DNA from: Candidatus Kerfeldbacteria bacterium
Lineage (GTDB): Bacteria > Patescibacteriota > Patescibacteriia > SBBC01
Reading direction: 5' to 3'
Assembly: GCA_043799405.1 (NCBI GenBank)
Contig: JAZDNT010000003.1
Span: 79,461-143,460 of the forward strand
DNA length: 64,000 bases
Part shown: positions 416 through 64,000 of the stretch, piece after piece
Numbering within the stretch: position 1 is the first letter of the stretch
Layout: each line of letters starts with the position of its first letter
Position numbers and translations under genes: made by a program
The notes under the pieces: model-generated
What the model was told of the DNA's origin: nothing
Database searches by the model: none
Seen by the model: the letters and a program-made list of their open reading frames with translations, nothing else

Positions 416-3400
416 ATGCGATTCATCAACCTTCATACCCACTCCCACTACAGCCTTCTCGACGGTCTCCCGAGGATCGACGCCCTCGTATCATACGCGA
501 AAGAGATCGGCCTTGAGGGGCTGGCGCTCACTGACCACGGCAACCTCTACGGCGCTGTAGAGTTCTTCCAGCACGCGAAAGCTGCCGGCCTGAAGCCAAT
601 CATCGGCATTGAGGCGTACTTTACGCGTGGGAGCCGCTTTGACAAGACCGGACGGATCGATGACCGCATCAATCATCTCATTCTCCTCGTTAAGGACGAT
701 GAGGGGTACCGGAACCTTTTAAAGATCATTACAGCGTCAAACCTTGAAGGATTCTACGGAAAGCCGAGGATCGACATGGAGCTCCTTGAGCGCCACCACC
801 GCGGACTCATCTGCCTGTCAGGGTGCATCAACGGACCGATCCCGACACTCCTCGTTAATGGTAACGATACAGAAGCGAAAAGGATGGCAAAGGCGTTCCG
901 TGACCTCTTCGGGACAGATGATTTTGCGCTTGAGCTGCAGCACCATCCGTCCATTGCGATGCAGGCGACGGTCAATGCGAAGCTCGCCGACCTCGGTAAA
1001 GAGCTCGATGTTCCGCTCGTTGCTACGAACGATAGCCACTACCTGAAGCCAGAGGACGCCGAAGCGCAGGACGTCCTCCTCTGCATTCATTTAAAAAAAC
1101 TACTGTCGGATACTGATCGCCTTACCATGAGGAATGAGGACCTGTCGCTCGTGCCTGCGCATATCATGGCAGAACGCTTTAAAAAGTACCCCGGAGCGAT
1201 AGAGCAGACGGCCGTAATCGCAGACAACATCGACTTCTCGTTCGAATTCGGAAAAACAGTTCTGCCGCACTTCGATGTCCCGAACGGCAAGAGCGGGATC
1301 GACTATATACGGGAGCTCTGCGAGAAGACCCTGACAGAAAAGTACGGTACTTCACCGTCAAAAGCTGCCATTGAACGCTTTGAGTATGAACTCGGCGTGA
1401 TCGGCAAGACCGGATTCGCCCCGTACTTCTTGATCGTCGCTGATTTCGTCAACTGGGCAAAACAAAACGGCATTGTCGTCGGTCCCGGGCGCGGTTCGGC
1501 CGCAGGATCGATCGTCTCCTACCTCCTCAACATTACGAACGTCGATCCGATCAAGTACGGGCTGCTCTTCGAGCGTTTCCTCAATCCTGATCGAATCGCA
1601 ATGCCTGACATTGACCTTGACTTCGCCGACAGCAGACGCGACGAGGTCATCCGTTACGTCCAGAGCAGGTACGGCGTTAACCACGTCGCGGGAATCATCA
1701 CGTTCGGAACGATGGCGGCGCGCGCAGCAATCAGGGATGTCGGCCGCGTCCTCGGATTCCCCTACTCCTACTGTGACCGGGTCGCAAAACTGATCCCCAT
1801 GTTCACAACGCTTTCTGACGCGATCCGAACCGTCCCGGAGCTCAAGGAAATTTACGAGAACGATCCTGATGCGCAACGGCTGCTCACTACTGCGAAGAAA
1901 CTCGAGGGCGTCGCCCGTCACGCATCACAGCACGCCTGCGGATTCGTCATTACGAAGGAACCGCTTGAGAACTCCGTTCCGGTACAGCGGGCATCCGCCG
2001 AAACCGATACGCTCATCTCCCAGTACTCGCTTCATCCCATCGAGGACCTCGGCATCCTCAAGATCGATTTCCTCGGTTTAGCGAACCTCACGATCCTCGA
2101 AACGACCCGATCGATCGTTCACGCCGTTCGGGGTATTGAGCTCGATTTTGACAAGCTACCGCTCAACGATCGCGCAACCTTCTCCCTGCTACAGCGCGGG
2201 GAAACAACCGGCGTATTCCAGCTTGAATCTTCAGGAATGCGACGATACCTGCGCGAGCTTAAACCGACCGCCCTCGAAGACATTGACGCCATGGTTGCAC
2301 TGTACCGCCCTGGCCCTATGGAGCTCATTCCGCAGTTCATCGCGGGAAAGCACGGCAAGTTTAAGCCGACTTACCTCGACCATCGCTTAAAGCCGATCCT
2401 CGAAAAGACTTATGGTGTTGCCGTGTACCAAGAACAGGTCATGCAAATGGCAAGGGATCTCGCTGGATTTACCATGGCCGAGGCTGACGTCCTCAGGAAA
2501 GCGGTCGGAAAGAAAATCGCAAAACTGCTCAAGGAACAGCGTAAAAAATTCGTCGACGGATGCATACGAAATGGTATAACGAGAACAACGGCAGAAAAGA
2601 TCTTCGAATTCATCGAGCCGTTCGCAAGGTACGGATTTAACCGCGCACACTCGATCTGCTACGCCCTCATTGCCTACCAGACGGCATACTGCAAGGCGAA
2701 CTACCCTGCAGAGTTCATGGCATCGCTCCTGACCGCCGACCAGACGAACACCGACCGTATCGCGCTCGAGGTCAATGAGTGCAAGAAAATGAAGCTCGAG
2801 GTGCTCCCACCGGACATCAATGAGAGCTTCTCGTCGTTCTCGGTCGTTCCTGGAACTTTCGGGGCGCCTCCGTCCCGAATCCGTTTCGGCCTCTCGGCAA
2901 TTAAGAACGTCGGCGACAACCTCGTCGCAGCCGTCATTTCAGAGCGCAAGCGCGCAGGGAGCTTCTTAAGCCTCGAAGACTTCTTACGGCGGGTCCAATC
3001 GAAAGACCTCAACCGGAAATCGCTTGAGAGCCTTGCGAAGGCCGGAGCTCTCGACAGGTTCGGAGAACGTAAGCAGATGCTGGAAAACATCGCGGAGCTC
3101 CTTGAGATCAGCCGCGGCGCCGAGCAGGAATCCGCGCGGAAACAGATGAACCTCTTCGGCTCGCTTCCCGTCCGTCATGCGCCGTCAATCCGCTTAAAGG
3201 ATTCCCAGTCCGCGACCAACGACGAAAAGCTCGCCTGGGAAAAACAGCTCCTCGGTTTCTTCATATCCGCGCATCCGCTCGATCCGTTCAAGGCGACGCT
3301 CGAGACGAACGGCGTACTACCATGCAGTAAACTATCTGAGCTCCGGAACAACCAGCGCATCACCATTGCCGGCGTCATCACCGCGATCCAACGGGTCACT

Positions 3401-5038: not shown

Positions 5039-6793
5039 ATGCAGCAGGATCCGAAAGCACGGGAACGCCTCGACCACATACGCCACACGCTCTCCCACCT
5101 CCTCGCAACGGCGGTGCTTGAGAAGTACCCCGACGCCCACATTGCCATCGGTCCGACGATCGAGCACGGTTTCTACTACGATATCGACGCACCCAACCCG
5201 ATTAAGCCCGACGACCTCCCGAAGCTTGAGAACCGGATGCGCGAGCTCATTGCGGCGAAGCTCCGCGTCGAGAAGGTCAGGATCGGGAAGTTCGAAGACG
5301 CTGGACCGGCAATGGCGAACAACCGCTACAAGGAAGAGCTCTACAGAGAACTGAAACAGCAGAAGCAACCGGCGACCTTCTACAAGATCGGGTCGTTCGT
5401 CGATCTCTGCCGCGGCGGCCACGTTGAGAACACCGGCGATATCAATCCGACCGGCTTCAAGCTCACGAAGGTCGCAGGCGCATACTGGCGGGGCGACTCG
5501 ACAAAGGCCATGCTCCAACGCGTCTACGGCGTCGCCTTCGACACCAAGGAAGAGCTTGACCGCTACCTTGCGCTCATCGCGGAAGCCGAGAAACGCGACC
5601 ACCGCACGATCGGGCATGACCTCGAGCTCTTCGCGTTCGATGCGGTAGCGCCCGGAGCACCCTTCTGGCTGCCGAACGGCATGACGCTCATCCGAGAGCT
5701 CGAACGGTACTGGAGGGAGATCCACGACGCAGCCGGCTACCTTGAGACCTCGACGCCGATCCTCAGCAACGCATCGCTCTACAAGACCTCGGGGCACTGG
5801 GAACACTTCCGCGAGAACATGTTCACGCTCGTTGTCGATGATCAGGATTTCGCGCTGAAGCCGATGAACTGCCCGTCATCGACGATTATCTACACCCACG
5901 ATCTTCGGAGCTACCGCGACCTGCCGCTGCGCTACTCGGAGATCGGTCGGCTGCACCGTAACGAGGTCCGCGGGACATTAGGCGGGCTGCTGCGCGTCCG
6001 GCAGATCACCATGGACGACGCGCACATTTTCTGCAGGCCCGACCAGATCGAACAGGAGATACGCGGCGTGCTCAGGCTCGTCGTGCAGTTCTACTCCCTC
6101 TTCGACCTTACACCGACCTTCAAGCTCTCGACCATGCCTGACCAGCACCTCGGCGAGGAAAAGACCTGGAAGCAGGCGGAGCAGACGCTCGAGCACGTCT
6201 TAAAGTCCGAGAAGCTTTCCTACGAGCTGAACCCGAAGGAGGGCGCGTTCTACGGACCGAAGATCGACATCGAGGTCAATGACGCGCTGCAGCGAACCTG
6301 GCAGGTCGCAACGATACAGCTCGACTACCAGATGCCGGAACGCTTCAAACTGTCATACATGGATAAGGACGGCCACCAGCAGCGACCGGTCATGATCCAC
6401 CGCGCGATATTCGGGTCTTACGAACGCTTCATCGGTATACTTCTCGAACATCTCGCAGGACGCTTACCGACCTGGCTCGCGCCCGTGCAGGTACAGCTCA
6501 TCCCGGTCGGGAGTGACCACGTAAAACCGTGCGATTTGCTCTCTGAAAAACTACGGAGCAAAGGGATCCGTGTTTCAGTAGATAGCGCGAACGAGACCGT
6601 AGGATACAAGATCCGGAAAGCGGAAAAAATGCGAATCCCCTACATGCTCGTGATCGGCGACAGAGAGGCAAAATCGACAAAGCTGCAGGTCAGGATACGG
6701 GGAAAGAAAGACGTCGTCGCTGTTGTGTCCTCGCGGTTTGGATCACGCATCAAGCGGGAAATCACGCAGAGGGCATTAACGCCGAAACCCTAG
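5039..6793 (+). CDS. thrS: threonine--tRNA ligase (no N-terminal TGS domain)
   Basis: 584 aa. Editing-domain start (HIRHTLSHLLATAV), EKRDHRTIGHDLELF, a class II catalytic core and an anticodon-binding C-terminus. Confidence 0.95.
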   Translation: MQQDPKARERLDHIRHTLSHLLATAVLEKYPDAHIAIGPTIEHGFYYDIDAPNPIKPDDLPKLENRMRELIAAKLRVEKVRIGKFEDAGPAMANNRYKEELYRELKQQKQPATFYKIGSFVDLCRGGHVENTGDINPTGFKLTKVAGAYWRGDSTKAMLQRVYGVAFDTKEELDRYLALIAEAEKRDHRTIGHDLELFAFDAVAPGAPFWLPNGMTLIRELERYWREIHDAAGYLETSTPILSNASLYKTSGHWEHFRENMFTLVVDDQDFALKPMNCPSSTIIYTHDLRSYRDLPLRYSEIGRLHRNEVRGTLGGLLRVRQITMDDAHIFCRPDQIEQEIRGVLRLVVQFYSLFDLTPTFKLSTMPDQHLGEEKTWKQAEQTLEHVLKSEKLSYELNPKEGAFYGPKIDIEVNDALQRTWQVATIQLDYQMPERFKLSYMDKDGHQQRPVMIHRAIFGSYERFIGILLEHLAGRLPTWLAPVQVQLIPVGSDHVKPCDLLSEKLRSKGIRVSVDSANETVGYKIRKAEKMRIPYMLVIGDREAKSTKLQVRIRGKKDVVAVVSSRFGSRIKREITQRALTPKP

Positions 6794-17816: not shown

Positions 17817-18506
17817 CTACGGCATCGACATCCACTGGTACGAATTGTACCAGCCGCCCACGTAGAGGTTGTACTGCCCAGAAATGCCTGACTGCGGGAT
17901 GCTCGGGCCATTGATCCTTCCGCCACCTCCCCAAGAGGCTGGGCTGTGGACGGAAAAATGAATGTGGGGACCACTCGACTGACCGGTGTTACCACACCTG
18001 CCGAGAATCGCTCCCTGAGCAATCGACATATTGGCGCCCACTCCGAAACTCGAGAGGTGAGCCACACGATACAAGCGACCGTAGCCGGCATCGACCACTA
18101 CCGTGTTTCCGTAGTCTCCCCACCAGCCCGCGTAGAGCACGCGTCCCCCAGCCGGAGCGACCACATACGCGCCATAATCCTGCCAGCCAGGGAGATTCCA
18201 GTCGACTGCGTAGGTTTCATTTCCTGTGTGTGCGCCGCAGCCGTAGAAGCAGGAGATCTGCCAGCGGCCGACAAACGGGAACTTCCACCCGTAACAGGTG
18301 ATCGCGGCCGGCTGAACCCCCGGCTTCTTCACCCCGAGCTGCGAGGGTTCGATCTGCTGCGTTTCGGACGGATTCTCCGTATTCCCCCGATACAGCGCCT
18401 TGATCGCTCCCCAGCTCGACCGGTTGACCGGCCGTTCCTGCGCGGACGCGTATGGTGCCAGCACGGCACCGATGCACAGCATCACTACGACAACACGTTT
18501 CCACAT
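17817..18506 (-). CDS. secreted M23/LytM-family peptidase
   Basis: 229 aa from ATG 18506; the ORF opens at TTG 18533. Signal peptide MWKRVVVVMLCIGAVLAPYASA. M23 signature GNTGQSSGPHIHFSV. GC3-rich codons. Confidence 0.8.
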   Translation of the reverse strand: MWKRVVVVMLCIGAVLAPYASAQERPVNRSSWGAIKALYRGNTENPSETQQIEPSQLGVKKPGVQPAAITCYGWKFPFVGRWQISCFYGCGAHTGNETYAVDWNLPGWQDYGAYVVAPAGGRVLYAGWWGDYGNTVVVDAGYGRLYRVAHLSSFGVGANMSIAQGAILGRCGNTGQSSGPHIHFSVHSPASWGGGGRINGPSIPQSGISGQYNLYVGGWYNSYQWMSMP

Positions 18507-18705
18507 GACCTTACCCCTCTTCGTTGAAGTCAACTGCGTTCACTGCGCGACATGGTGCTGCACTGCTGTACAGATACGGGTCACCTCCTTTACCCCGCAC
18601 CCATTATGGTGCGCGGGTTTCTTGACAACGAACGAATGAACGGACATGAACACACGGTGGCACAAGAATTGCGCCACCGTGGCTCGGGATTGGAAAACGG
18701 GCTTT

Positions 18706-19257
18706 TTACATCTGATTCTTTATTGTCGGTTGCTTCCGGCTGATTTGTAAACAGCTGCCGGCTGCTTTCACGAAAGCCATCACACAATACCCGCTTATAA
18801 CCAATAGGAATGGTATACTCGCTGCAGCAGTTGAAAAAACCGCACTTAACGCATATGGGCTGTACTCGACGCCCGTTGGACCAACGACATTCTTCCAGGG
18901 CGGTAAAAAAAGAATTTCTACCAAGGCAGGAAGTCCCGCAATAATGAGCGAGCAAAGCAATACCTGCGTAAGGCGTCGATTAAACGACGCCTTAGTTGCC
19001 GTATGAAGGTAGCCTAATAAAACTCCGAAGAGTATCGGCATAATTACCAGACTGATCCAGAAGAACACCATAAGCAGGTATCCCATCCATATGTTCTGAT
19101 TCCGACACCATCCCAAATCTGCCGCCTCTGTAGAACAACTTTCTATAGGAAACGCTCCGAATGAGCGCGGCAGGAAGAAAGCAAAAAGAACTATGATGAT
19201 TGCGATCACTAAAGCTGTTTTGGTGGTCGAAAATGTATGTGGAATGGTCATATGCAT
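18706..19257 (-). CDS. multi-pass membrane protein
   Basis: 183 aa from ATG 19257; the longer ORF to 19422 has a non-protein-like N-terminus. About 4 TM helices. Lower GC than both neighbours. Confidence 0.55.
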   Translation of the reverse strand: MHMTIPHTFSTTKTALVIAIIIVLFAFFLPRSFGAFPIESCSTEAADLGWCRNQNIWMGYLLMVFFWISLVIMPILFGVLLGYLHTATKASFNRRLTQVLLCSLIIAGLPALVEILFLPPWKNVVGPTGVEYSPYALSAVFSTAAASIPFLLVISGYCVMAFVKAAGSCLQISRKQPTIKNQM

Positions 19258-19277
19258 AGTCAGTAGAAACGAATAGG

Positions 19278-19315
19278 CTGGGAAGGTTGTATCAATTCTG
19301 ACACAACCTTCCCAG
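19278..19315 (-). terminator. hairpin terminator
   Basis: Perfect 13-bp stem CTGGGAAGGTTGT/ACAACCTTCCCAG with a 12-nt loop, directly after the stop at 19340. Confidence 0.55.
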
Positions 19316-19339
19316 CGATGTCCAAGGGTACTGCCGCGG

Positions 19340-19873
19340 TCAGAAGCAGAGCTCGAACTGCTGCGACAGTCCCCAGGCGGAACTCCAGAGGCGATGTCCC
19401 CACCAAAAGGAGCCGTCCGCAAACAACATCAGCTCTTCGGTGTTGGCAGTCGGGTAGCGAACCCACAGCATCCAGCCGTTCAGCCAGTCGCGCTCATAAT
19501 CCTTCCATAGACGCCCGACTGGCGCGCGGCACATGTTCGTGTTGATCCGGAAGAACATGACCACGTGATAGCCGCTGCCGGGATTGTTGGGATCGCGCCA
19601 GAATTCGTTGACAGCGTACGGCTTGACCTGCCAGCCTGTCACTCGCGTCGGCATCGGACCGGGCTTGATCAATGCAGGTCCGCTCCCGATCGGAACGGTC
19701 TGTACGGGCTCTGCAAGAGCAGAACCCCTGTACAGTGCCTTGATCTGCCCCCAGCTGGCGCGCTTGACAACCGGCGGCGCTTGGTCGTCAGCCGCGGCTG
19801 CCAAGCTGGGCGTGATCAGGACAAAGGCCGCGCACAGCACAGCCAACGGAAGCAACCTTCTCTTGAAGTTCAC
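19340..19873 (-). CDS. secreted Trp-rich hypothetical protein sharing its N-terminal module with the M23 peptidase
   Basis: 177 aa from GTG 19873, with AGGAGG 6 nt upstream; the ORF opens at TTG 19891. Signal peptide LLPLAVLCAAFVLITPSLAAA. Motif ASWGQIKALYRG. Confidence 0.65.
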   Translation of the reverse strand: MNFKRRLLPLAVLCAAFVLITPSLAAAADDQAPPVVKRASWGQIKALYRGSALAEPVQTVPIGSGPALIKPGPMPTRVTGWQVKPYAVNEFWRDPNNPGSGYHVVMFFRINTNMCRAPVGRLWKDYERDWLNGWMLWVRYPTANTEELMLFADGSFWWGHRLWSSAWGLSQQFELCF

Positions 19874-20090
19874 GATGTGCCTCCTGTCCAAGATGGTTCA
19901 CTGCTTGCAGCGCATGAAGATCCTGCTACAAGAAAGAAGTTGACAGTATCACCTCCTTTTCAACGAGCGTGAAATGCAACAACGCACGATGACGCCATGT
20001 GCGCCACCGTGTATTGCTGCGTAGAAATGTACTACTTAGAGCGTATACCTCACGTATGGACTGTCAACGCCCTTTATGCACCAAAATCGC

Positions 20091-21542: not shown

Positions 21543-21776
21543 TCATGCAGCGCCTTCCTTGTCGCCTTCCGGCGGTTTTGGCGTACCGGACCCCCAGCGC
21601 TCGGCGCGCCGGTTCTCCTCCTGGATACGGACGTAAATCTCTTCACGATGAACCTTGACCTCGGGAGGCGCGTCGATGCCGAGCTTCACCTGGCCCGAGC
21701 GGACCTCCAACACCGTGATCTTCACGGAGTCGCCGATCCTGATGATCTCTCCCAACTTCCTTGTCAAGACCAACAT
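21543..21776 (-). CDS. csrA: carbon storage regulator CsrA
   Basis: 77 aa. [48 protein letters not shown]. Confidence 0.93.
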
Positions 21777-32394: not shown

Positions 32395-32940
32395 TTAAAT
32401 TTTCTTAACCTGCAAAAAGTCCAGTTCAACCGGCGTCTCGCGGCCGAACATGGATACGAGCACCTTGATCTTGCCGCGGGCTTCGTCGAGTTCGCTGACC
32501 TTGCCCTCGAAGTCCTTGAACGGACCGTCGATGATGCGGACCGGGGAACCGACCTGTACGTCGATCTTGTACTTCGGCTCCTCGACGCCCATCCGCTTCT
32601 GCAACGCTTTGACCTCTTCATCGGAGATCGGCGTCGGCGTCGTACCAGAACCGACGAATCCAGTGACGTTCGGGGTATTTCGAACGACGTACCACGAGTC
32701 GTCCGTCACGATCATCTCGACCAGTACGTACCCGGGGAAGATCTTCTCGGTTACCACCTTGCGCTTGCCGTTCTTGATCCGGATCTTGTTCTCGGTCGGG
32801 ATCAGCACCATGAAGATCTTGTCCTCCATGTCCATCGACTCGATGCGCTGCCGGAGGTTACGCGAAACGTTCTCCTCATACCCGGAGTAGGTATGGAGCA
32901 CGTACCAGCGTCGTCCCTGTTGCTGTGTCTGCTTTGGCAT
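32395..32940 (-). CDS. nusG: transcription termination/antitermination factor NusG
   Basis: 181 aa. RRWYVLHTYSGYE. KOW motif VGSPVRIIDGPFKDFEGKV. Confidence 0.96.
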   Translation of the reverse strand: MPKQTQQQGRRWYVLHTYSGYEENVSRNLRQRIESMDMEDKIFMVLIPTENKIRIKNGKRKVVTEKIFPGYVLVEMIVTDDSWYVVRNTPNVTGFVGSGTTPTPISDEEVKALQKRMGVEEPKYKIDVQVGSPVRIIDGPFKDFEGKVSELDEARGKIKVLVSMFGRETPVELDFLQVKKI

Positions 32941-45167: not shown

Positions 45168-45224
45168 TTAAATAATATCCTCCTTTTCGAGTTCTTTTAA
45201 ACGTTTATCGAGATCGGGGTTCAT
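45168..45224 (-). pseudogene. 18-codon fragment paralogous to the N-terminus of 43408-43608
   Basis: Reads MNPDLDKRLKELEKEDII-stop, against MDPDLDKRLAELEKKVDEM... Confidence 0.55.
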
Positions 45225-57599: not shown

Positions 57600-58748
57600 A
57601 TGAAAAAAGTAGTCGGAACGATTCTGTCGGTCGTTGTTGGGCTTTGTGCATACACAACGGTCGAGGCGAGCATTGTCATGTCGACCGATATCAGCGCACC
57701 CGGAGGTCTGACGCCATCCACGTTCTCGGAGCTCAAGGGGACAACGTTTACCGACCTCAACATGAGCATGATGGATTTCACGAGTAACCTTGTATTCAAA
57801 CGCGGGAATGCGCTCATCTACACGAGCAGCGAAGGAATCGTGAAGCAGACGATCGGCGCATCAACCGTATCAGTCCTTAAAAAGGCATCGAGCGTCTACC
57901 TCGTCAACACCCGCGGTCCTCAGCTCGTTATTTCTAACAATGCAACGACGAAGAACACCGGATCGTACATCTACAACGTGGACGCAAAGAAATCAAAGTT
58001 ATTCACGCTAAAGGTCACCGATGTTATTCAAGCTCGGTTCTCGCCGAACGGTAAGTGGGTTGCTCTGCTTGGAAAGAACGCAAAGGGAAAGTCGCGTCTC
58101 TTCGTATCGACGACCAGCATCGAGAAGCTCCGCGAATACCAGCTCCCGAAAGGCACGACGAAGTGCGTCTCAATGGCAATCTCGCCTGACAGCGCAACAC
58201 TAGCGCTCGTCTGCGAGAAAAAGTACGAGAACGGTTCTGCATCGAACGGGATCACGCTCAGGAAGTTCAGCGCGAACGTCCTCGAAAAAGAGCAGCAGTA
58301 CATGGATACAAGCTTTACGATCTACGACATCGTCTGGAAGGATAAGAGCACGATCGTCGGGCTCGGATTCGGTCCTGCCGCGACTGGATCAGGCAGCGGG
58401 CGTATTCCGTTCTCCAGTCTCTCAGTAAAAGCGCTCGAGAATTCACCGTTTGCTATCGGGCTTCATAAGTACACCGTAAAGAACGGAAAGGTATCTAAGA
58501 GCACCGCCTATCCCTTCATCACGTCGGATATAGTCGATCCCTCCAATTACATCGTGCCTATGCAGCTCTTCTTGAGCTCAAAGAACGTTGTTGACTACTC
58601 GGCACTCAACTTTACTGCGACTGACGGTGAGGCAGGCGAGGTCAGCTCATACCTCAGCAGGTACAACCTCTCAACTCAGCAGCAGTCCGTGCTTCTCAAG
58701 AATGAAAAGGTCAACTTCTTTTCTGAGTATCAGCTTGTATCATCATAG
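57600..58748 (+). CDS. secreted protein with PD40/TolB-like repeats
   Basis: 382 aa from ATG 57600. Signal peptide MKKVVGTILSVVVGLCAYTTVEA. Motifs RFSPNGKWVALL and AISPDSATLALV. Confidence 0.6.
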   Translation: MKKVVGTILSVVVGLCAYTTVEASIVMSTDISAPGGLTPSTFSELKGTTFTDLNMSMMDFTSNLVFKRGNALIYTSSEGIVKQTIGASTVSVLKKASSVYLVNTRGPQLVISNNATTKNTGSYIYNVDAKKSKLFTLKVTDVIQARFSPNGKWVALLGKNAKGKSRLFVSTTSIEKLREYQLPKGTTKCVSMAISPDSATLALVCEKKYENGSASNGITLRKFSANVLEKEQQYMDTSFTIYDIVWKDKSTIVGLGFGPAATGSGSGRIPFSSLSVKALENSPFAIGLHKYTVKNGKVSKSTAYPFITSDIVDPSNYIVPMQLFLSSKNVVDYSALNFTATDGEAGEVSSYLSRYNLSTQQQSVLLKNEKVNFFSEYQLVSS

Positions 58749-61605: not shown

Positions 61606-64000
61606 TTATAAGCTAATCTTCGTTTTGTTTATCTTCTTGTCTTCGACGAACTTGTTCTTTACGAGATCAAGCTTCCACACCTTGATAGTCGTCTTATCCC
61701 CCTGCTTCATGGTCACTAATCCATACTGGATTTTATAGAGTTTCTTGAAACTGACCAGGATAGTACCGGCCTTGGCAGTCGCCACTACACTGTTGCGTGC
61801 AGTGAGCTTTGCGGCAGTCACTTCATAGGTTTTTACGACGGTACCCGTTTTCAGCATCCCGACGGCTAGATACACCTTCTTATTACTTTCGACAACGGCG
61901 GTGGCGTTCAGTCCGCTGGTGGAAAATCCTCCGTACGGTTTATATGCTTTCAGGAGTTTGCCGTCAGCTTTGAATACTCTGATTTGACCCTTCTTGTATG
62001 CCGCGGAGTTTAAGAAAACATAGATCTTGCCATCGGGTCCGAAATCAATGCTCCTGGCCCAAACGGCTCCCTTGTAGTCGGTCCCAAAGGGACTGATCTT
62101 GATAGTTTTTCCGTTCAACTTGTAGGAGTAGACGCCCTTCGTGAGTTTGATTGTTTTGATGGTCGGAGCTGACTTATCAATGTTAGTGATCGTCACGGTG
62201 GAGGTAGTGCTGTTACCAGCCGCGTCGGTAGCCACGAAGTCGAAGGAACCGTTGGCCGTGAACGTATGGCTTGCTGCGTTCAGCGTGCCTTCGTTTGTAG
62301 TAGCGGTGACGGTAATATCTGATCTGGTCGCGGCGGTCGTATAGGGAGCGATGGTGATTACCGGAGGGGTCTTATCAATGTTAGTGATCGTCACGGTGGA
62401 GGTAGTGCTGTTACCAGCCGCGTCGGTAGCCACGAAGTCGAACGAGCCATTGACCGTGAACGTATGGCTTGCTGCGTTCAGCGTGCCTTCGTTTGTAGTA
62501 GCGGTGACGGTAATGTCCTGATTGGTTGGTGTCGTGGTGTAGGAGGCAATGGTGACGACTGGCGCGGTCTTATCGATGTTGCTGACGGTGGCAGTGGCTG
62601 TTCCCGCATTACCCGCCAGGTCGGTGAAGGTAAAGCCAAAACTTCCGTTGGCGGTGAAGGTATAGGAGGCGCTACCGCCATTGTTGGATACGATGATGCT
62701 TTCGCTCGGGGCTAGGGTGGCGGTCACGTTCTGATTGGTCGGCGCCGTGGTCGAATAATTCAATGTGGCGGTTGGGGCAGTGACATCGACATTGCTGAGG
62801 CTATTGAAGGCGTTGATCCGGCCGCCGGTTACGACTTTTCCAGCCAGACCCGCCTTGGTGTCAACGTTGTTCAGTATGGTATTTTTGATACCTAAATAGG
62901 TGAAGGTGGCTTTATATGATTTCAACAGCGCTGCCAAACCGGCCACCTGCGGGGAGGCCATGGACGTACCTTGTAAATAGGTATAGCCCTCACGGGTGTC
63001 GAGGACCTTCACGTCATTAAGAAAGAACGGGTAACTACCGCCCGAACTGTTCGTGTGCCAAAGGAAACGAACGCGCATGCCAGCTGACGCATAGGCACTG
63101 ATATCAACCGAAATGGTACCGGCCTGCTCGGTTATGATCGAACCGTAATTGCACAGGCGGCCGATCTCCGTCCAGGTCGATCCATTGTCAAGATCCACAC
63201 CAAGGTAATCATACTCACAGTTCGCGGTGGGCGACGTTTCGGTCCAGAAGTCATAGGTAAATTTCAAAATGATTGCCGGCCGACCAGACGTATCGATGAC
63301 GCTCGAGGTAATGTAGGTGTCGATATTGTTGCCTGGGAAACCGTACGTTGACTCGGCCCACTTGTCACCGGCGACATCAGTAATTATCCAACCATCCGGA
63401 GGCGAGTCGCCGCTCTGGGTAAAGCTCGTGCCGGTAAAATCGTAACCGTAAATCGTCGGATTTGAGGCTCCATCGAACGACTCAACCAATGCCTGCCCAG
63501 GGTAGGTGCTGTAAATATTGACACCCGGCGCGGCCACATCGACCGAAGTCGTGCCGTAATTAGAAAAACTCGCGAGTGCGTCAGTTTGACCCGATGCCGC
63601 TACGCAGAGGATGTTGTCGAGGCCGTAGTCGCAGGGATAATGGTGCGTGCCGCCGTCGTTGTTATAGCCGTCGTTGCCGGATGCCACGACGACGAGCACA
63701 CCGGCTGTACGTGCGATGTTGATGGCATCATAGAGCGTCTGGCTGTACGCCGTGCCGCCGAGGCTCATATTAATAACCTGCGCTCCATTCTGAACGGCAT
63801 AGGTAACCCCCGCGGCGATGTTTTCATTCGTTCCAGAGCCGTTGGCGTTAAGCACGCGGACCGGCATGATTTTTGGGTTCCAGGCAACTCCGGTCACTCC
63901 CTGAGAGTTGTTCCCGATGGCGCCGATCGTGCCAGCCACATGCGTACCGTGACCGTTCAGATCGTATGGCGACGTGTCGCTATCAACAAAATCATAACCG
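61606..64000 (-). CDS. S8 subtilisin-like serine protease with C-terminal Ig-like repeats (5' end outside the window)
   Basis: The frame is open to the window edge. HGTHVAGTIGA spans 63939 and GTSMASPQVAGLAALL is present. Followed by 3 repeats of about 66 aa and a beta-rich tail. Confidence 0.9.
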   Translation of the reverse strand, partial: GYDFVDSDTSPYDLNGHGTHVAGTIGAIGNNSQGVTGVAWNPKIMPVRVLNANGSGTNENIAAGVTYAVQNGAQVINMSLGGTAYSQTLYDAINIARTAGVLVVVASGNDGYNNDGGTHHYPCDYGLDNILCVAASGQTDALASFSNYGTTSVDVAAPGVNIYSTYPGQALVESFDGASNPTIYGYDFTGTSFTQSGDSPPDGWIITDVAGDKWAESTYGFPGNNIDTYITSSVIDTSGRPAIILKFTYDFWTETSPTANCEYDYLGVDLDNGSTWTEIGRLCNYGSIITEQAGTISVDISAYASAGMRVRFLWHTNSSGGSYPFFLNDVKVLDTREGYTYLQGTSMASPQVAGLAALLKSYKATFTYLGIKNTILNNVDTKAGLAGKVVTGGRINAFNSLSNVDVTAPTATLNYSTTAPTNQNVTATLAPSESIIVSNNGGSASYTFTANGSFGFTFTDLAGNAGTATATVSNIDKTAPVVTIASYTTTPTNQDITVTATTNEGTLNAASHTFTVNGSFDFVATDAAGNSTTSTVTITNIDKTPPVITIAPYTTAATRSDITVTATTNEGTLNAASHTFTANGSFDFVATDAAGNSTTSTVTITNIDKSAPTIKTIKLTKGVYSYKLNGKTIKISPFGTDYKGAVWARSIDFGPDGKIYVFLNSAAYKKGQIRVFKADGKLLKAYKPYGGFSTSGLNATAVVESNKKVYLAVGMLKTGTVVKTYEVTAAKLTARNSVVATAKAGTILVSFKKLYKIQYGLVTMKQGDKTTIKVWKLDLVKNKFVEDKKINKTKISL
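62173..62775 (-). repeat. tandem 198-bp coding repeats (two near-identical, one diverged)
   Basis: Copies start at 62173, 62371 and 62569. The first about 70 nt of copies 1 and 2 are identical (cttatcaatgttagtgatcgtcacggtggaggtagtgctgttaccagccgcgtcggtagccacgaagtcgaa). Confidence 0.9.

Follow-up and report, generated by a model that had tools for sequence, protein, structure and literature searches.

A conserved leader with an orphan Shine-Dalgarno-like box upstream of secreted-protein genes in a Candidatus Kerfeldbacteria genome

The stabilizing Shine-Dalgarno sequence (STAB-SD) of the Bacillus thuringiensis cry3A messenger RNA (mRNA) was reportedly described by Agaisse and Lereclus in 1996. 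In the part of PMC4113751 that summarizes Mathy et al. 2007, a Shine-Dalgarno (SD) sequence without a start codon in the cry3A 5' untranslated region (UTR) binds the 30S ribosomal subunit and blocks RNase J1. The aprE leader combines a 5' stem-loop with ribosome binding, and the determinants common to 5' stabilizers in organisms without RNase E are a strong, start-less SD and occlusion of the 5' end (PMC3997798). The rnj gene is kept in at least 90% of the genomes of the Candidate Phyla Radiation (CPR; PMC12641178). Here we describe a leader that occurs twice in a 64-kb stretch of Candidatus Kerfeldbacteria DNA (contig JAZDNT010000003.1; the whole stretch is referred to as the window), upstream of two minus-strand genes for secreted proteins, gene A and gene B, and that carries an orphan SD box far from either start codon. 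Our leading, and still tentative, interpretation is that leaders A and B are 5' stabilizers of the STAB-SD/aprE type, with RNase J blocked jointly by 5' hairpins and by a 30S subunit that would dock on the orphan SD. Almost nothing is known about post-transcriptional control in uncultured CPR bacteria (Patescibacteria), and we found no published description of this leader; the Kerfeldbacteria literature that we found consists of ecological surveys.

The orphan Shine-Dalgarno box and its leader family

Three blocks of nucleotides, reported as common to both leaders in a preliminary description of this DNA, were recovered exactly, at the same minus-strand positions, by pattern searches of the 64 kb (Table 1). 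Search expectations were 1.6 for block 1 and 0.96 for the box, both sought as 11-mers with at most one mismatch, and 0.55 for block 3, sought as an exact 9-mer. The 64 kb contain no further exact copy of either 11-mer (CACGGTGGCGC and AAAGGAGGTGA). In each leader, block 1 forms the 5' arm of a hairpin. Block 3 (GCAGUGAAC) is conserved in the closest relatives only, as the GCGC(C)GCAGU(G/U) region to which it belongs is common only to leaders A and B and to three leaders on related contigs (L007_2, L009, and L010).

Judged by its sequence, the middle block is an SD without a gene. Its core, AGGAGGUGA(U/C), comprises 9-13 contiguous nucleotides (nt) identical to AGAAAGGAGGTGATCC, which we take to be the complement of the canonical 16S ribosomal RNA (rRNA) 3' tail (the host's own may differ), in 13 boxes. 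Within these boxes, which come from the window, L001, L002, L007, L009, L010, and L040, AGGAGGTG is invariant, the next base is A in 12 of the 13, and the flanks diverge; the invariance covers GGUG, which pairs with 16S CACC. The leader A box (12 nt) and the leader B box (11 nt, joint second) are the longest matches to AGAAAGGAGGTGATCC on either strand of the 64 kb. All other window matches of at least 10 nt belong to genuine SDs, each followed by a start codon 1-4 nt further on, and the real SDs of window genes use GGAGGTGA. An ATG, GTG, or TTG at 3-12 nt after the core is absent in 12 of the 13 copies, the exception being a doubtful family member (L001_2, GTG at 5 nt), and in L001_3a and L040_a a TTG or ATG appears only at 13 nt. 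In leader A, none of these three codons is present 3-14 nt downstream. A stretch of 45-120 nt separates the box from a normal SD and start codon. The same description had seen no conserved open reading frame (ORF) behind the box, and this held: the short ORFs MRCKQ and MSRSERS exist, and their frames differ relative to block 3. A leader peptide with its own ribosome-binding site was rejected because the short ORFs differ in frame, length, and sequence among leaders. From its sequence context, then, the box appears not to direct translation initiation, and no conserved peptide is apparent.

A second orphan SD lies about 50 nt before the start in two relatives (L001:4925-4950, copy L001_3, and L040:5928-5953), locked in the hairpin GUGAGGAGGUGAUCCUCAC. 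The 3' arm of this hairpin mimics the 16S anti-SD, and in L001 a three-codon upstream ORF (MDV) then overlaps the main start. A third orphan SD candidate, at window position 45186, is not a family member, since it lies inside a small ORF or gene end; GTTCTTTCCAA at 58079 was set aside as lying inside a coding region.

The relatives are retrieved contigs that encode homologs of the gene A product and of the M23 peptidase encoded by gene B. The leader measures about 160-180 nt in the window and up to about 400 nt in the relatives. L007, a close relative, has two full leaders, one upstream of a lipoprotein gene and one upstream of a CHAP gene, and the copies in L009 and L010, which precede an M23 gene and a gene of unknown function, respectively, are truncated at the 5' end. 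In L001, one leader precedes a gene A ortholog with 60% identity and another a lipoprotein gene, and the doubtful copy precedes a NUDIX-like gene. L002 has one leader, upstream of another gene A ortholog; in L040 to L044 the leader stands upstream of an M23 ortholog (47% identical), and L045 has a degenerate copy whose box is reduced to GGAGGA. Since the leader is found upstream of non-homologous genes (the gene A family, M23, CHAP, two lipoproteins, and an unknown protein), the element is not merely co-inherited with one gene. Orthologous leaders are barely alignable outside the box, and the orthologous proteins are 47-60% identical. Conservation at the nucleotide level, from which the preliminary description had proposed a shared cis-regulatory element, is thus borne out by the presence of the same leader, with an invariant box, in at least four related lineages.

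Homologs with covariation, which the preliminary description had proposed to seek, were found. A covariance model built from the two L007 leaders alone matched leader B (18635-18576; E = 5.9e-7) and L040 (E = 9e-6). With leader B in its training set, a second-round model matched leader B at E = 4.8e-13, L001 at E = 0.0014 and 0.048, the L045 hairpin at E = 2e-4, and L009 at E = 0.011, and gave non-significant matches only for L002 (E = 0.26) and leader A (E = 0.65). The Rfam scan suggested in the same place returned no match in the window or in seven related loci at the gathering threshold, and none overlapping the leaders at E values up to 10. No further relatives came from scans of species-representative genomes and Joint Genome Institute (JGI) metagenomes, and a search via the membrane-protein gene between genes A and B found only the window's own protein. 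A pattern for the first hairpin, CACGGTGGCGCN{8,38}GCCRCCGTKTKT, had 24 matches in a genome contig scan, which we attribute to chance because they fall in unrelated, mostly GC-rich taxa; none of the 24 has a GGAGGTG box downstream, and one has AGGAGG 133 nt away. The N-terminal module common to the two secreted proteins retrieved five high-GC contigs in a metagenome contig scan, where SWGxIKxLY is internal to unrelated proteins, and these were discarded as well. The leader family appears to be rare as far as the scanned collections show.

Promoters, hairpins, and the boxA-like motif

As read from the sequences, the leader is modular, with a promoter, a first hairpin (P1), a boxA-like motif, an optional second hairpin (P2), the orphan SD box, and the real SD with its start codon. 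For leader A, we infer a transcription start near 20033 from the predicted promoter. The hexamers and spacer length of this promoter are identical in L007 (L007:61-88, copy L007_1; TTGACA, 16 nt, TACGCT), where the spacer sequence has diverged, and the leader A -10 hexamer is too weak for detection by a promoter scan. The weak candidate promoter of leader B would lie inside the 3' end of the upstream membrane-protein gene, and L007 has a -10-like hexamer at the equivalent place. Strong sigma-70-type promoters, with 10-11 of 12 consensus matches, are predicted upstream of leaders in L003, L040 (twice), and L001. In these four leaders P1 starts 8-10 nt after the -10 hexamer and would therefore be a 5'-terminal stem-loop.

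P1 folds preferentially on the sense strand, with free energies (dG) of -30.7 kcal/mol for sense versus -15.9 kcal/mol for antisense in leader A, which has four G.U pairs, and of -28.5 versus -20.7 kcal/mol in leader B. For 8 of 9 copies, antisense folding is weaker than sense folding by 6-19 kcal/mol. The four window-clade leaders retain all nine core pairs, and the only changes there are in the 3' arm, from G-C to G.U and from U-A to U.G, so that the 5' arm (GGUGGC) is conserved in sequence and the 3' arm drifts by wobble pairs. This sense-strand specificity and wobble-kept pairing indicate that the element acts as RNA. The preliminary description had allowed for an RNA or a DNA element; the RNA alternative stands, and the P1 inverted repeat was rejected as a DNA operator, because the spacing of its arms varies from 5 to about 50 nt and G.U-kept pairing works only in sense RNA. 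Pairing of the P1 5' arm with block 3 was also tried; it is good in the L009 and L007_2 types and fails in leader B.

A sister leader type is found at L003:117-325 and L040:2337-2545, with a strong promoter and a P1 (AAAUCGGUGGCUUGGUCG...CGAGUCGCCGAUUUUU) that contains seven G.U pairs and compensatory inner-stem changes. Just upstream of leader-gene promoters, in lineages whose proteins are about 50-60% identical, there is also an inverted repeat with exact 12-mer arms, CCCCGTTAGAGG and CCTCTAACGGGG, separated by 45-59 nt. In the window its arms are at 20172-20161 and 20115-20104, and further sites are at L040:5487-5498 and 5558-5569, where the right arm abuts the -35 hexamer, at L001:4533-4544, and at L007:18-29. 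A role as a transcription-factor operator is conceivable for this repeat, as is one as a conserved terminator serving the gene upstream. Outside the window there is a further conserved intergenic motif, which consists of CCAAGCCACCAAAATTTGTCTATA and, after it, a purine-rich GGTGGGGAGTGGGAG (L001:636-700 and 2960-3030; L002:4605-4660; L040:418-470 and 5318-5400); its first part is the reverse complement of the P1 start GTGGCTTGG, and it has no Rfam match.

Between P1 and P2 or the box, ten leaders from at least four lineages carry a single-stranded CGYUCNUUR at a conserved position (for example, GCGUUCUUUACA in L002, GGCUCGUUACAA in L007, and CGCUCGUUGAAA in the window). It resembles the boxA of rrn operons (UGCUCUUUA) and of lambda (CGCUCUUA) (PMC2724277), with an imperfect match at 7-8 of 8 core positions. 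It agrees with the boxA consensus GYTCTTTAANA at 8 of 10 specified positions; boxA regulation of non-rRNA genes is documented, for instance for E. coli suhB (PMC5725501). The strict gamma-proteobacterial boxA consensus has no match in the window, and a loose boxA-like pattern is not enriched there (6 matches versus 6.0 expected). The motif lies downstream of the predicted promoters and 5-15 nt before P2. Its TTACAA/TTGTCA was considered as part of a promoter and rejected because P2 is inserted, at variable length, before any possible -10 hexamer.

P2 of leader B has a dG of -17.5 kcal/mol (z = -3.55). Leader A and L009 lack this hairpin, and equivalents with unrelated sequences are present in L007 (twice), L001 (twice), L040, and L045. 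Despite five unrelated stem sequences, every copy is significant against shuffled sequences (z from -2.5 to -6.4), and the usual distance from the end of P2 to the box is 2-9 nt. Pairing covers 97% of the P2 cells in the model alignment, compared with 20-48% in slid controls, and 4 of 10 pairs are changed on both sides. The P2 loop is semi-conserved across the different stems (UCGCUAACGC or CGCGUUCG).

Genes behind the leaders and their surroundings

On the minus strand, an RNHCP-domain gene (20573-20202) is followed by gene A, the membrane-protein gene (19257-18706), and gene B (Table 1). Both leader genes encode secreted proteins, as the preliminary description had held, with Sec signal peptides that look typical by inspection. 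The N-terminus of the gene A product consists of a signal peptide and the DDQAPPVVKRASWGQIKALYRG module, and the NCBI protein P0001 (MNFKRR...) matches this product; the true start is the GTG at 19873. The gene B product belongs to Peptidase_M23 (Pfam PF01551, E = 1.5e-19). An exact-sequence lookup of this window-translated M23 protein returned no record, and the homology database holds an identical entry, P0008 (named at NCBI as an M23 family metallopeptidase from Candidatus Kerfeldbacteria; 100% identity over 229 aa).

The two proteins have only an N-terminal module in common (V.R.SWG.IKALYRG; 32% identity over 128 aa, E = 3e-7). This near-identical module, a signal peptide followed by DDQAPPVVKRxSWGQIKALYRG, is encoded at 19873-19720 and 18506-18370 in the window and is present in P0005, P0006, and P0007 (from L007, L009, and L010), joined to differing C-terminal domains (the gene A domain, M23, CHAP, or an unknown one). 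This secretion module is accompanied by the 3' part of the leader with block 3 in it, and their movement together suggests a leader-plus-secretion cassette that has been shuffled among genes.

Among the surroundings, an 18-bp perfect, terminator-like hairpin lies 3' of gene A (19316-19277, minus strand). Its sub-threshold Rfam match to ar35, an alphaproteobacterial small RNA (30.1 bits versus a gathering cutoff of 45, E = 0.0025), is almost certainly spurious. A csrA gene (21543-21776, minus strand; Pfam CsrA, E = 9e-25) shares the strand of leader A and lies 1.5 kb upstream of it, and a NusG-like gene (32395-32940, minus strand) adjoins genes for ribosomal proteins L11 and L1, all three recognized by eye from their N-terminal residues. 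At 62194-62201, 48 bases around a match to CACGGTGG are repeated exactly 198 bp away (62392-62399) within an ORF (61606-63939, minus strand) that is subtilisin-like by eye; this exact repeat suggests a tandem protein domain and is unrelated to the leader. We found no RNase J or RNase Y motif and no rRNA or transfer RNA in the 64-kb window.

Table 1. Window coordinates of the two leaders, their sequence blocks, and their genes.
Feature	Position	Strand	Description
Predicted promoter, leader A	20040..20067	-	-35 TTGACA 20067-20062, 16-nt spacer, -10 TACGCT 20045-20040
P1, leader A	19976..20020	-	core CACGGUGGCGC (20011-20001) paired with GCGUCAUCGUG (19995-19985); outer stem GCAGCAAU/GUUGUUGC
boxA-like motif, leader A GCUCGUUGAAAA	19957..19968	-	overlaps A-run of orphan SD
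Orphan SD box, leader A AAAGGAGGUGAU	19948..19959	-	ends 75 nt before start
Block 3, leader A GCAGUGAAC	19896..19904	-	part of GCGC(C)GCAGU(G/U) region
Real ribosome-binding site, gene A	19871..19885	-	AGGAGG 19885-19880, 6-nt spacer, GTG 19873-19871
Gene A	19340..19873	-	secreted protein, 177 aa; GTG start 19873; without Pfam domain
Candidate promoter, leader B	18722..18751	-	TTTACA, 18 nt, GACAAT; 9/12 matches; weak, inferred
P1, leader B	18648..18685	-	CACGGUGGC (18681-18673) pairs with GCCACCGUG (18661-18653); flanking bases lengthen stem
boxA-like motif, leader B GUUCGUUGUCAA	18622..18633	-	aligned with motif of other leaders in covariance-model alignment
P2, leader B	18593..18617	-	CCCGCGCACC-AUAAU-GGGUGCGGGG; ends 1 nt (U18592) before box AAAGGAGGUGA
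Orphan SD box, leader B AAAGGAGGUGA	18581..18591	-	ends 74 nt before start
Block 3, leader B GCAGUGAAC	18538..18546	-	exact match
Real ribosome-binding site, gene B	18504..18519	-	GAGGGGUAAGG, then ATG 18506-18504
Gene B	17817..18506	-	secreted M23 metallopeptidase, 229 aa; ATG start 18506
Block 1 CACGGTGGCGC	18681-18671 and 20011-20001	-	exact match
AAAGGAGGTGA box	18591-18581 and 19959-19949	-	exact match
Block 3 GCAGTGAAC	18546-18538 and 19904-19896	-	exact match

Candidate functions and comparison with described leaders

If the leader is a 5' stabilizer, a 30S subunit would base-pair with the orphan SD and stay parked there without initiating. The parked subunit and the hairpins would sterically shield the untranslated leader from 5'-to-3' decay by RNase J, and the subunit might in addition be kept near the real ribosome-binding site 65-120 nt downstream. 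The expected outcome would be a more stable mRNA and higher expression of secreted cell-wall hydrolases and their partner proteins, with recruitment of NusB/S10 by the boxA-like motif as a possible addition. Several observations weigh against this stabilizer interpretation. The fit of the box to the ribosome was judged on the canonical 16S tail as generally given. Accessibility prediction gives the box a mean unpaired probability of 0.14-0.56 with no consistent pattern. Primary 5' ends are predicted 75-270 nt upstream of the box, both the starts and the processing sites being predictions only. A tail of five to six U residues, UUUUUG(C), comes after P1 in about 6 of 10 copies and makes it resemble a terminator more than a hairpin with a purely protective role, and in the sister leaders (L003 and L040:2330-2545) P1 is followed by three further hairpins without an orphan SD, meaning that P1 can occur without the box. 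A pure stabilizer also fails to account for why GGUGGC is conserved in the 5' arm of P1, and for the conserved boxA-like motif and the semi-conserved P2 loop.

Our main alternative, or a possible addition to the stabilizer, is a Nus-factor site of the rrn/lambda nut type, in which CGYUCNUUR and the hairpins recruit NusB/S10 and the orphan SD is accessory; polymerase would then resist Rho or hairpin termination across the leader, or ribosome access would be modulated as at E. coli suhB. The conserved position of the motif, its match to the boxA core, a spacing from P2 that resembles the lambda nut spacer, the semi-conserved P2 loop, the NusG-like gene, and the documented non-rRNA targets all argue for such a site. 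We nevertheless consider it unlikely: the motif is short and its loose version no more frequent in the window than expected, position 5 is G in the window clade where the consensus has U, the strict gamma-proteobacterial consensus lacks a window match, a boxA located 3' of P1 cannot relieve termination at P1, and the SD-like box is left unexplained as the single invariant block. A composite loading pad of a kind not described before, serving both transcription and translation machinery, in which a NusB/S10 site (the boxA-like motif and the hairpin with the semi-conserved loop) and a 30S-docking orphan SD stand behind a promoter-proximal, terminator-like hairpin, is a somewhat less likely alternative again; CPR bacteria would then have co-opted rRNA-leader logic to drive and gate the production of secreted cell-wall hydrolases that are possibly used on host cells. 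P1 itself might be a promoter-proximal attenuator, an intrinsic terminator that ends most transcripts after about 50-80 nt unless a trans-acting factor recognizing the GGUGGC 5' arm prevents the hairpin, with the rest of the leader secondary. The GC-rich P1 with its UUUUUG(C) tail in L003, L040 (twice), L001_3, L007_1, and L009, the terminator-like call on part of the L001 P1, and the conserved 5' arm facing a wobble-drifting 3' arm are consistent with attenuation. We rate it as improbable, because both U-tracts in the window, AUUUCAC (leader A) and UGUGUUC (leader B), are degenerate, a sensor or antiterminator structure would have no space 5' of P1, the U-run is mostly paired with a 5' A-run that lengthens the stem, and the orphan SD again goes unexplained.

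Two further readings assign the box a regulatory partner, and we give each of them the same low probability. In one, a CsrA dimer bound to two GGA sites, that in the box and that in the real SD, would form a bridge that blocks initiation, as on the B. subtilis hag mRNA. The nearby csrA gene fits this, as does the presence of at least two GGA motifs per leader, 45-120 nt apart. The CsrA consensus obtained by systematic evolution of ligands by exponential enrichment (SELEX) is ACARGGA, and the real SD region, ACAGGAG, resembles it. Against CsrA, the invariance spans AGGAGGUG, including the GGUG that the 16S tail needs and CsrA does not, the box lies 3' of a hairpin and not in a loop, and the GGA spacing is at or beyond the range over which bridging reportedly occurs. 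In the other, raised in the preliminary description, the box is a decoy or sequestered SD that pairs with the downstream GCGCCGCAG block or competes with the real SD, under a ligand, temperature, or protein switch. In five leaders RNAalifold predicts a helix between GAGGUG (box) and CGCCGC (block 3), a hairpin locks up the second box in both L001_3 and L040, and the real ribosome-binding sites are predicted to be largely paired. Closer comparison speaks against the proposal, and a 30S-docking role would fit better, in that no consistent cis partner emerged: the consensus energy is close to zero (-0.06 kcal/mol), the helix between box and block 3 lacks covariation, the predicted partner changes between leaders, block 3 is absent from L007_1, L001, L002, and L040, the accessibility of the box is mixed, and Rfam gives no match. 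Lastly, the leaders could have no function, as relics of a tandem duplication of the gene with its upstream region, or the box could be the SD of a short leader peptide. The N-terminal module common to both genes and the short ORFs in both leaders might be read in this way. This view is strongly disfavored, as the box is invariant where orthologous proteins have diverged substantially and the surrounding leader is unalignable, the leader also precedes genes without the module, and no short ORF, besides their differences among leaders, begins at a usable distance from the box.

The family is conserved, modular, and outside Rfam, its boxes are the strongest ribosome-binding sequences of the region and have no start codon, and it fronts secreted peptidoglycan hydrolases (M23 and CHAP) and partner proteins. 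Were 30S docking true, stabilization of the STAB-SD/aprE kind would reach far beyond Firmicutes and the leader would mark the transcripts that episymbionts most need in abundance; a host 16S 3' tail of the form ...GAUCACCUCCUUU would favor it. If real, the boxA-like motif would show Nus factors acting on a non-rRNA target in a minimal genome. The leader would also amount to a compact expression cassette, and its narrow distribution, over a handful of contigs, limits the general importance of the family.

Compared with described systems, the Kerfeldbacteria leader resembles nut sites in that hairpins adjoin a short single-stranded motif rich in pyrimidines; its order hairpin-boxA is found in rrn and its order boxA-spacer-hairpin in lambda nut. 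Unlike these sites, it has an orphan SD 3' of the motif and no evident downstream terminator. With CsrA-controlled leaders such as B. subtilis hag it has in common two GGA sites, one at the SD and one upstream, and a nearby csrA; unlike in those leaders, conservation extends over the whole anti-SD complement rather than A(N)GGA alone, and the upstream GGA is outside a hairpin loop. Closer parallels are offered by aprE and other 5' stabilizers (ermC, the SP82 polypurine sequence, and hbs; PMC3997798), which combine a 5'-terminal stem-loop with ribosome binding without translation, and the product of aprE, too, is a secreted hydrolase. The sequences show no homology to aprE, whose ribosome-binding site is the gene's own, whereas the Kerfeldbacteria leader has a separate orphan SD far 5' of the functional one. 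The STAB-SD of cry3A is likewise an SD in the 5' UTR that lies about 70-125 nt before the start codon, has strong complementarity to the 3' end of 16S rRNA, goes unused for initiation, and precedes a highly expressed, exported or accumulated protein in a host lineage with RNase J. In contrast to it, the Kerfeldbacteria leader belongs to a CPR bacterium and not a Firmicute, embeds its box among P1, boxA-like, and P2 modules, has relatives with two boxes, the second in a hairpin, and is known from sequence, its stabilizing effect and processed 5' end being conjectural. We tentatively view the leader as a functional counterpart of STAB-SD and aprE that is not homologous to either, occurs in a different phylum, and is built from several modules.

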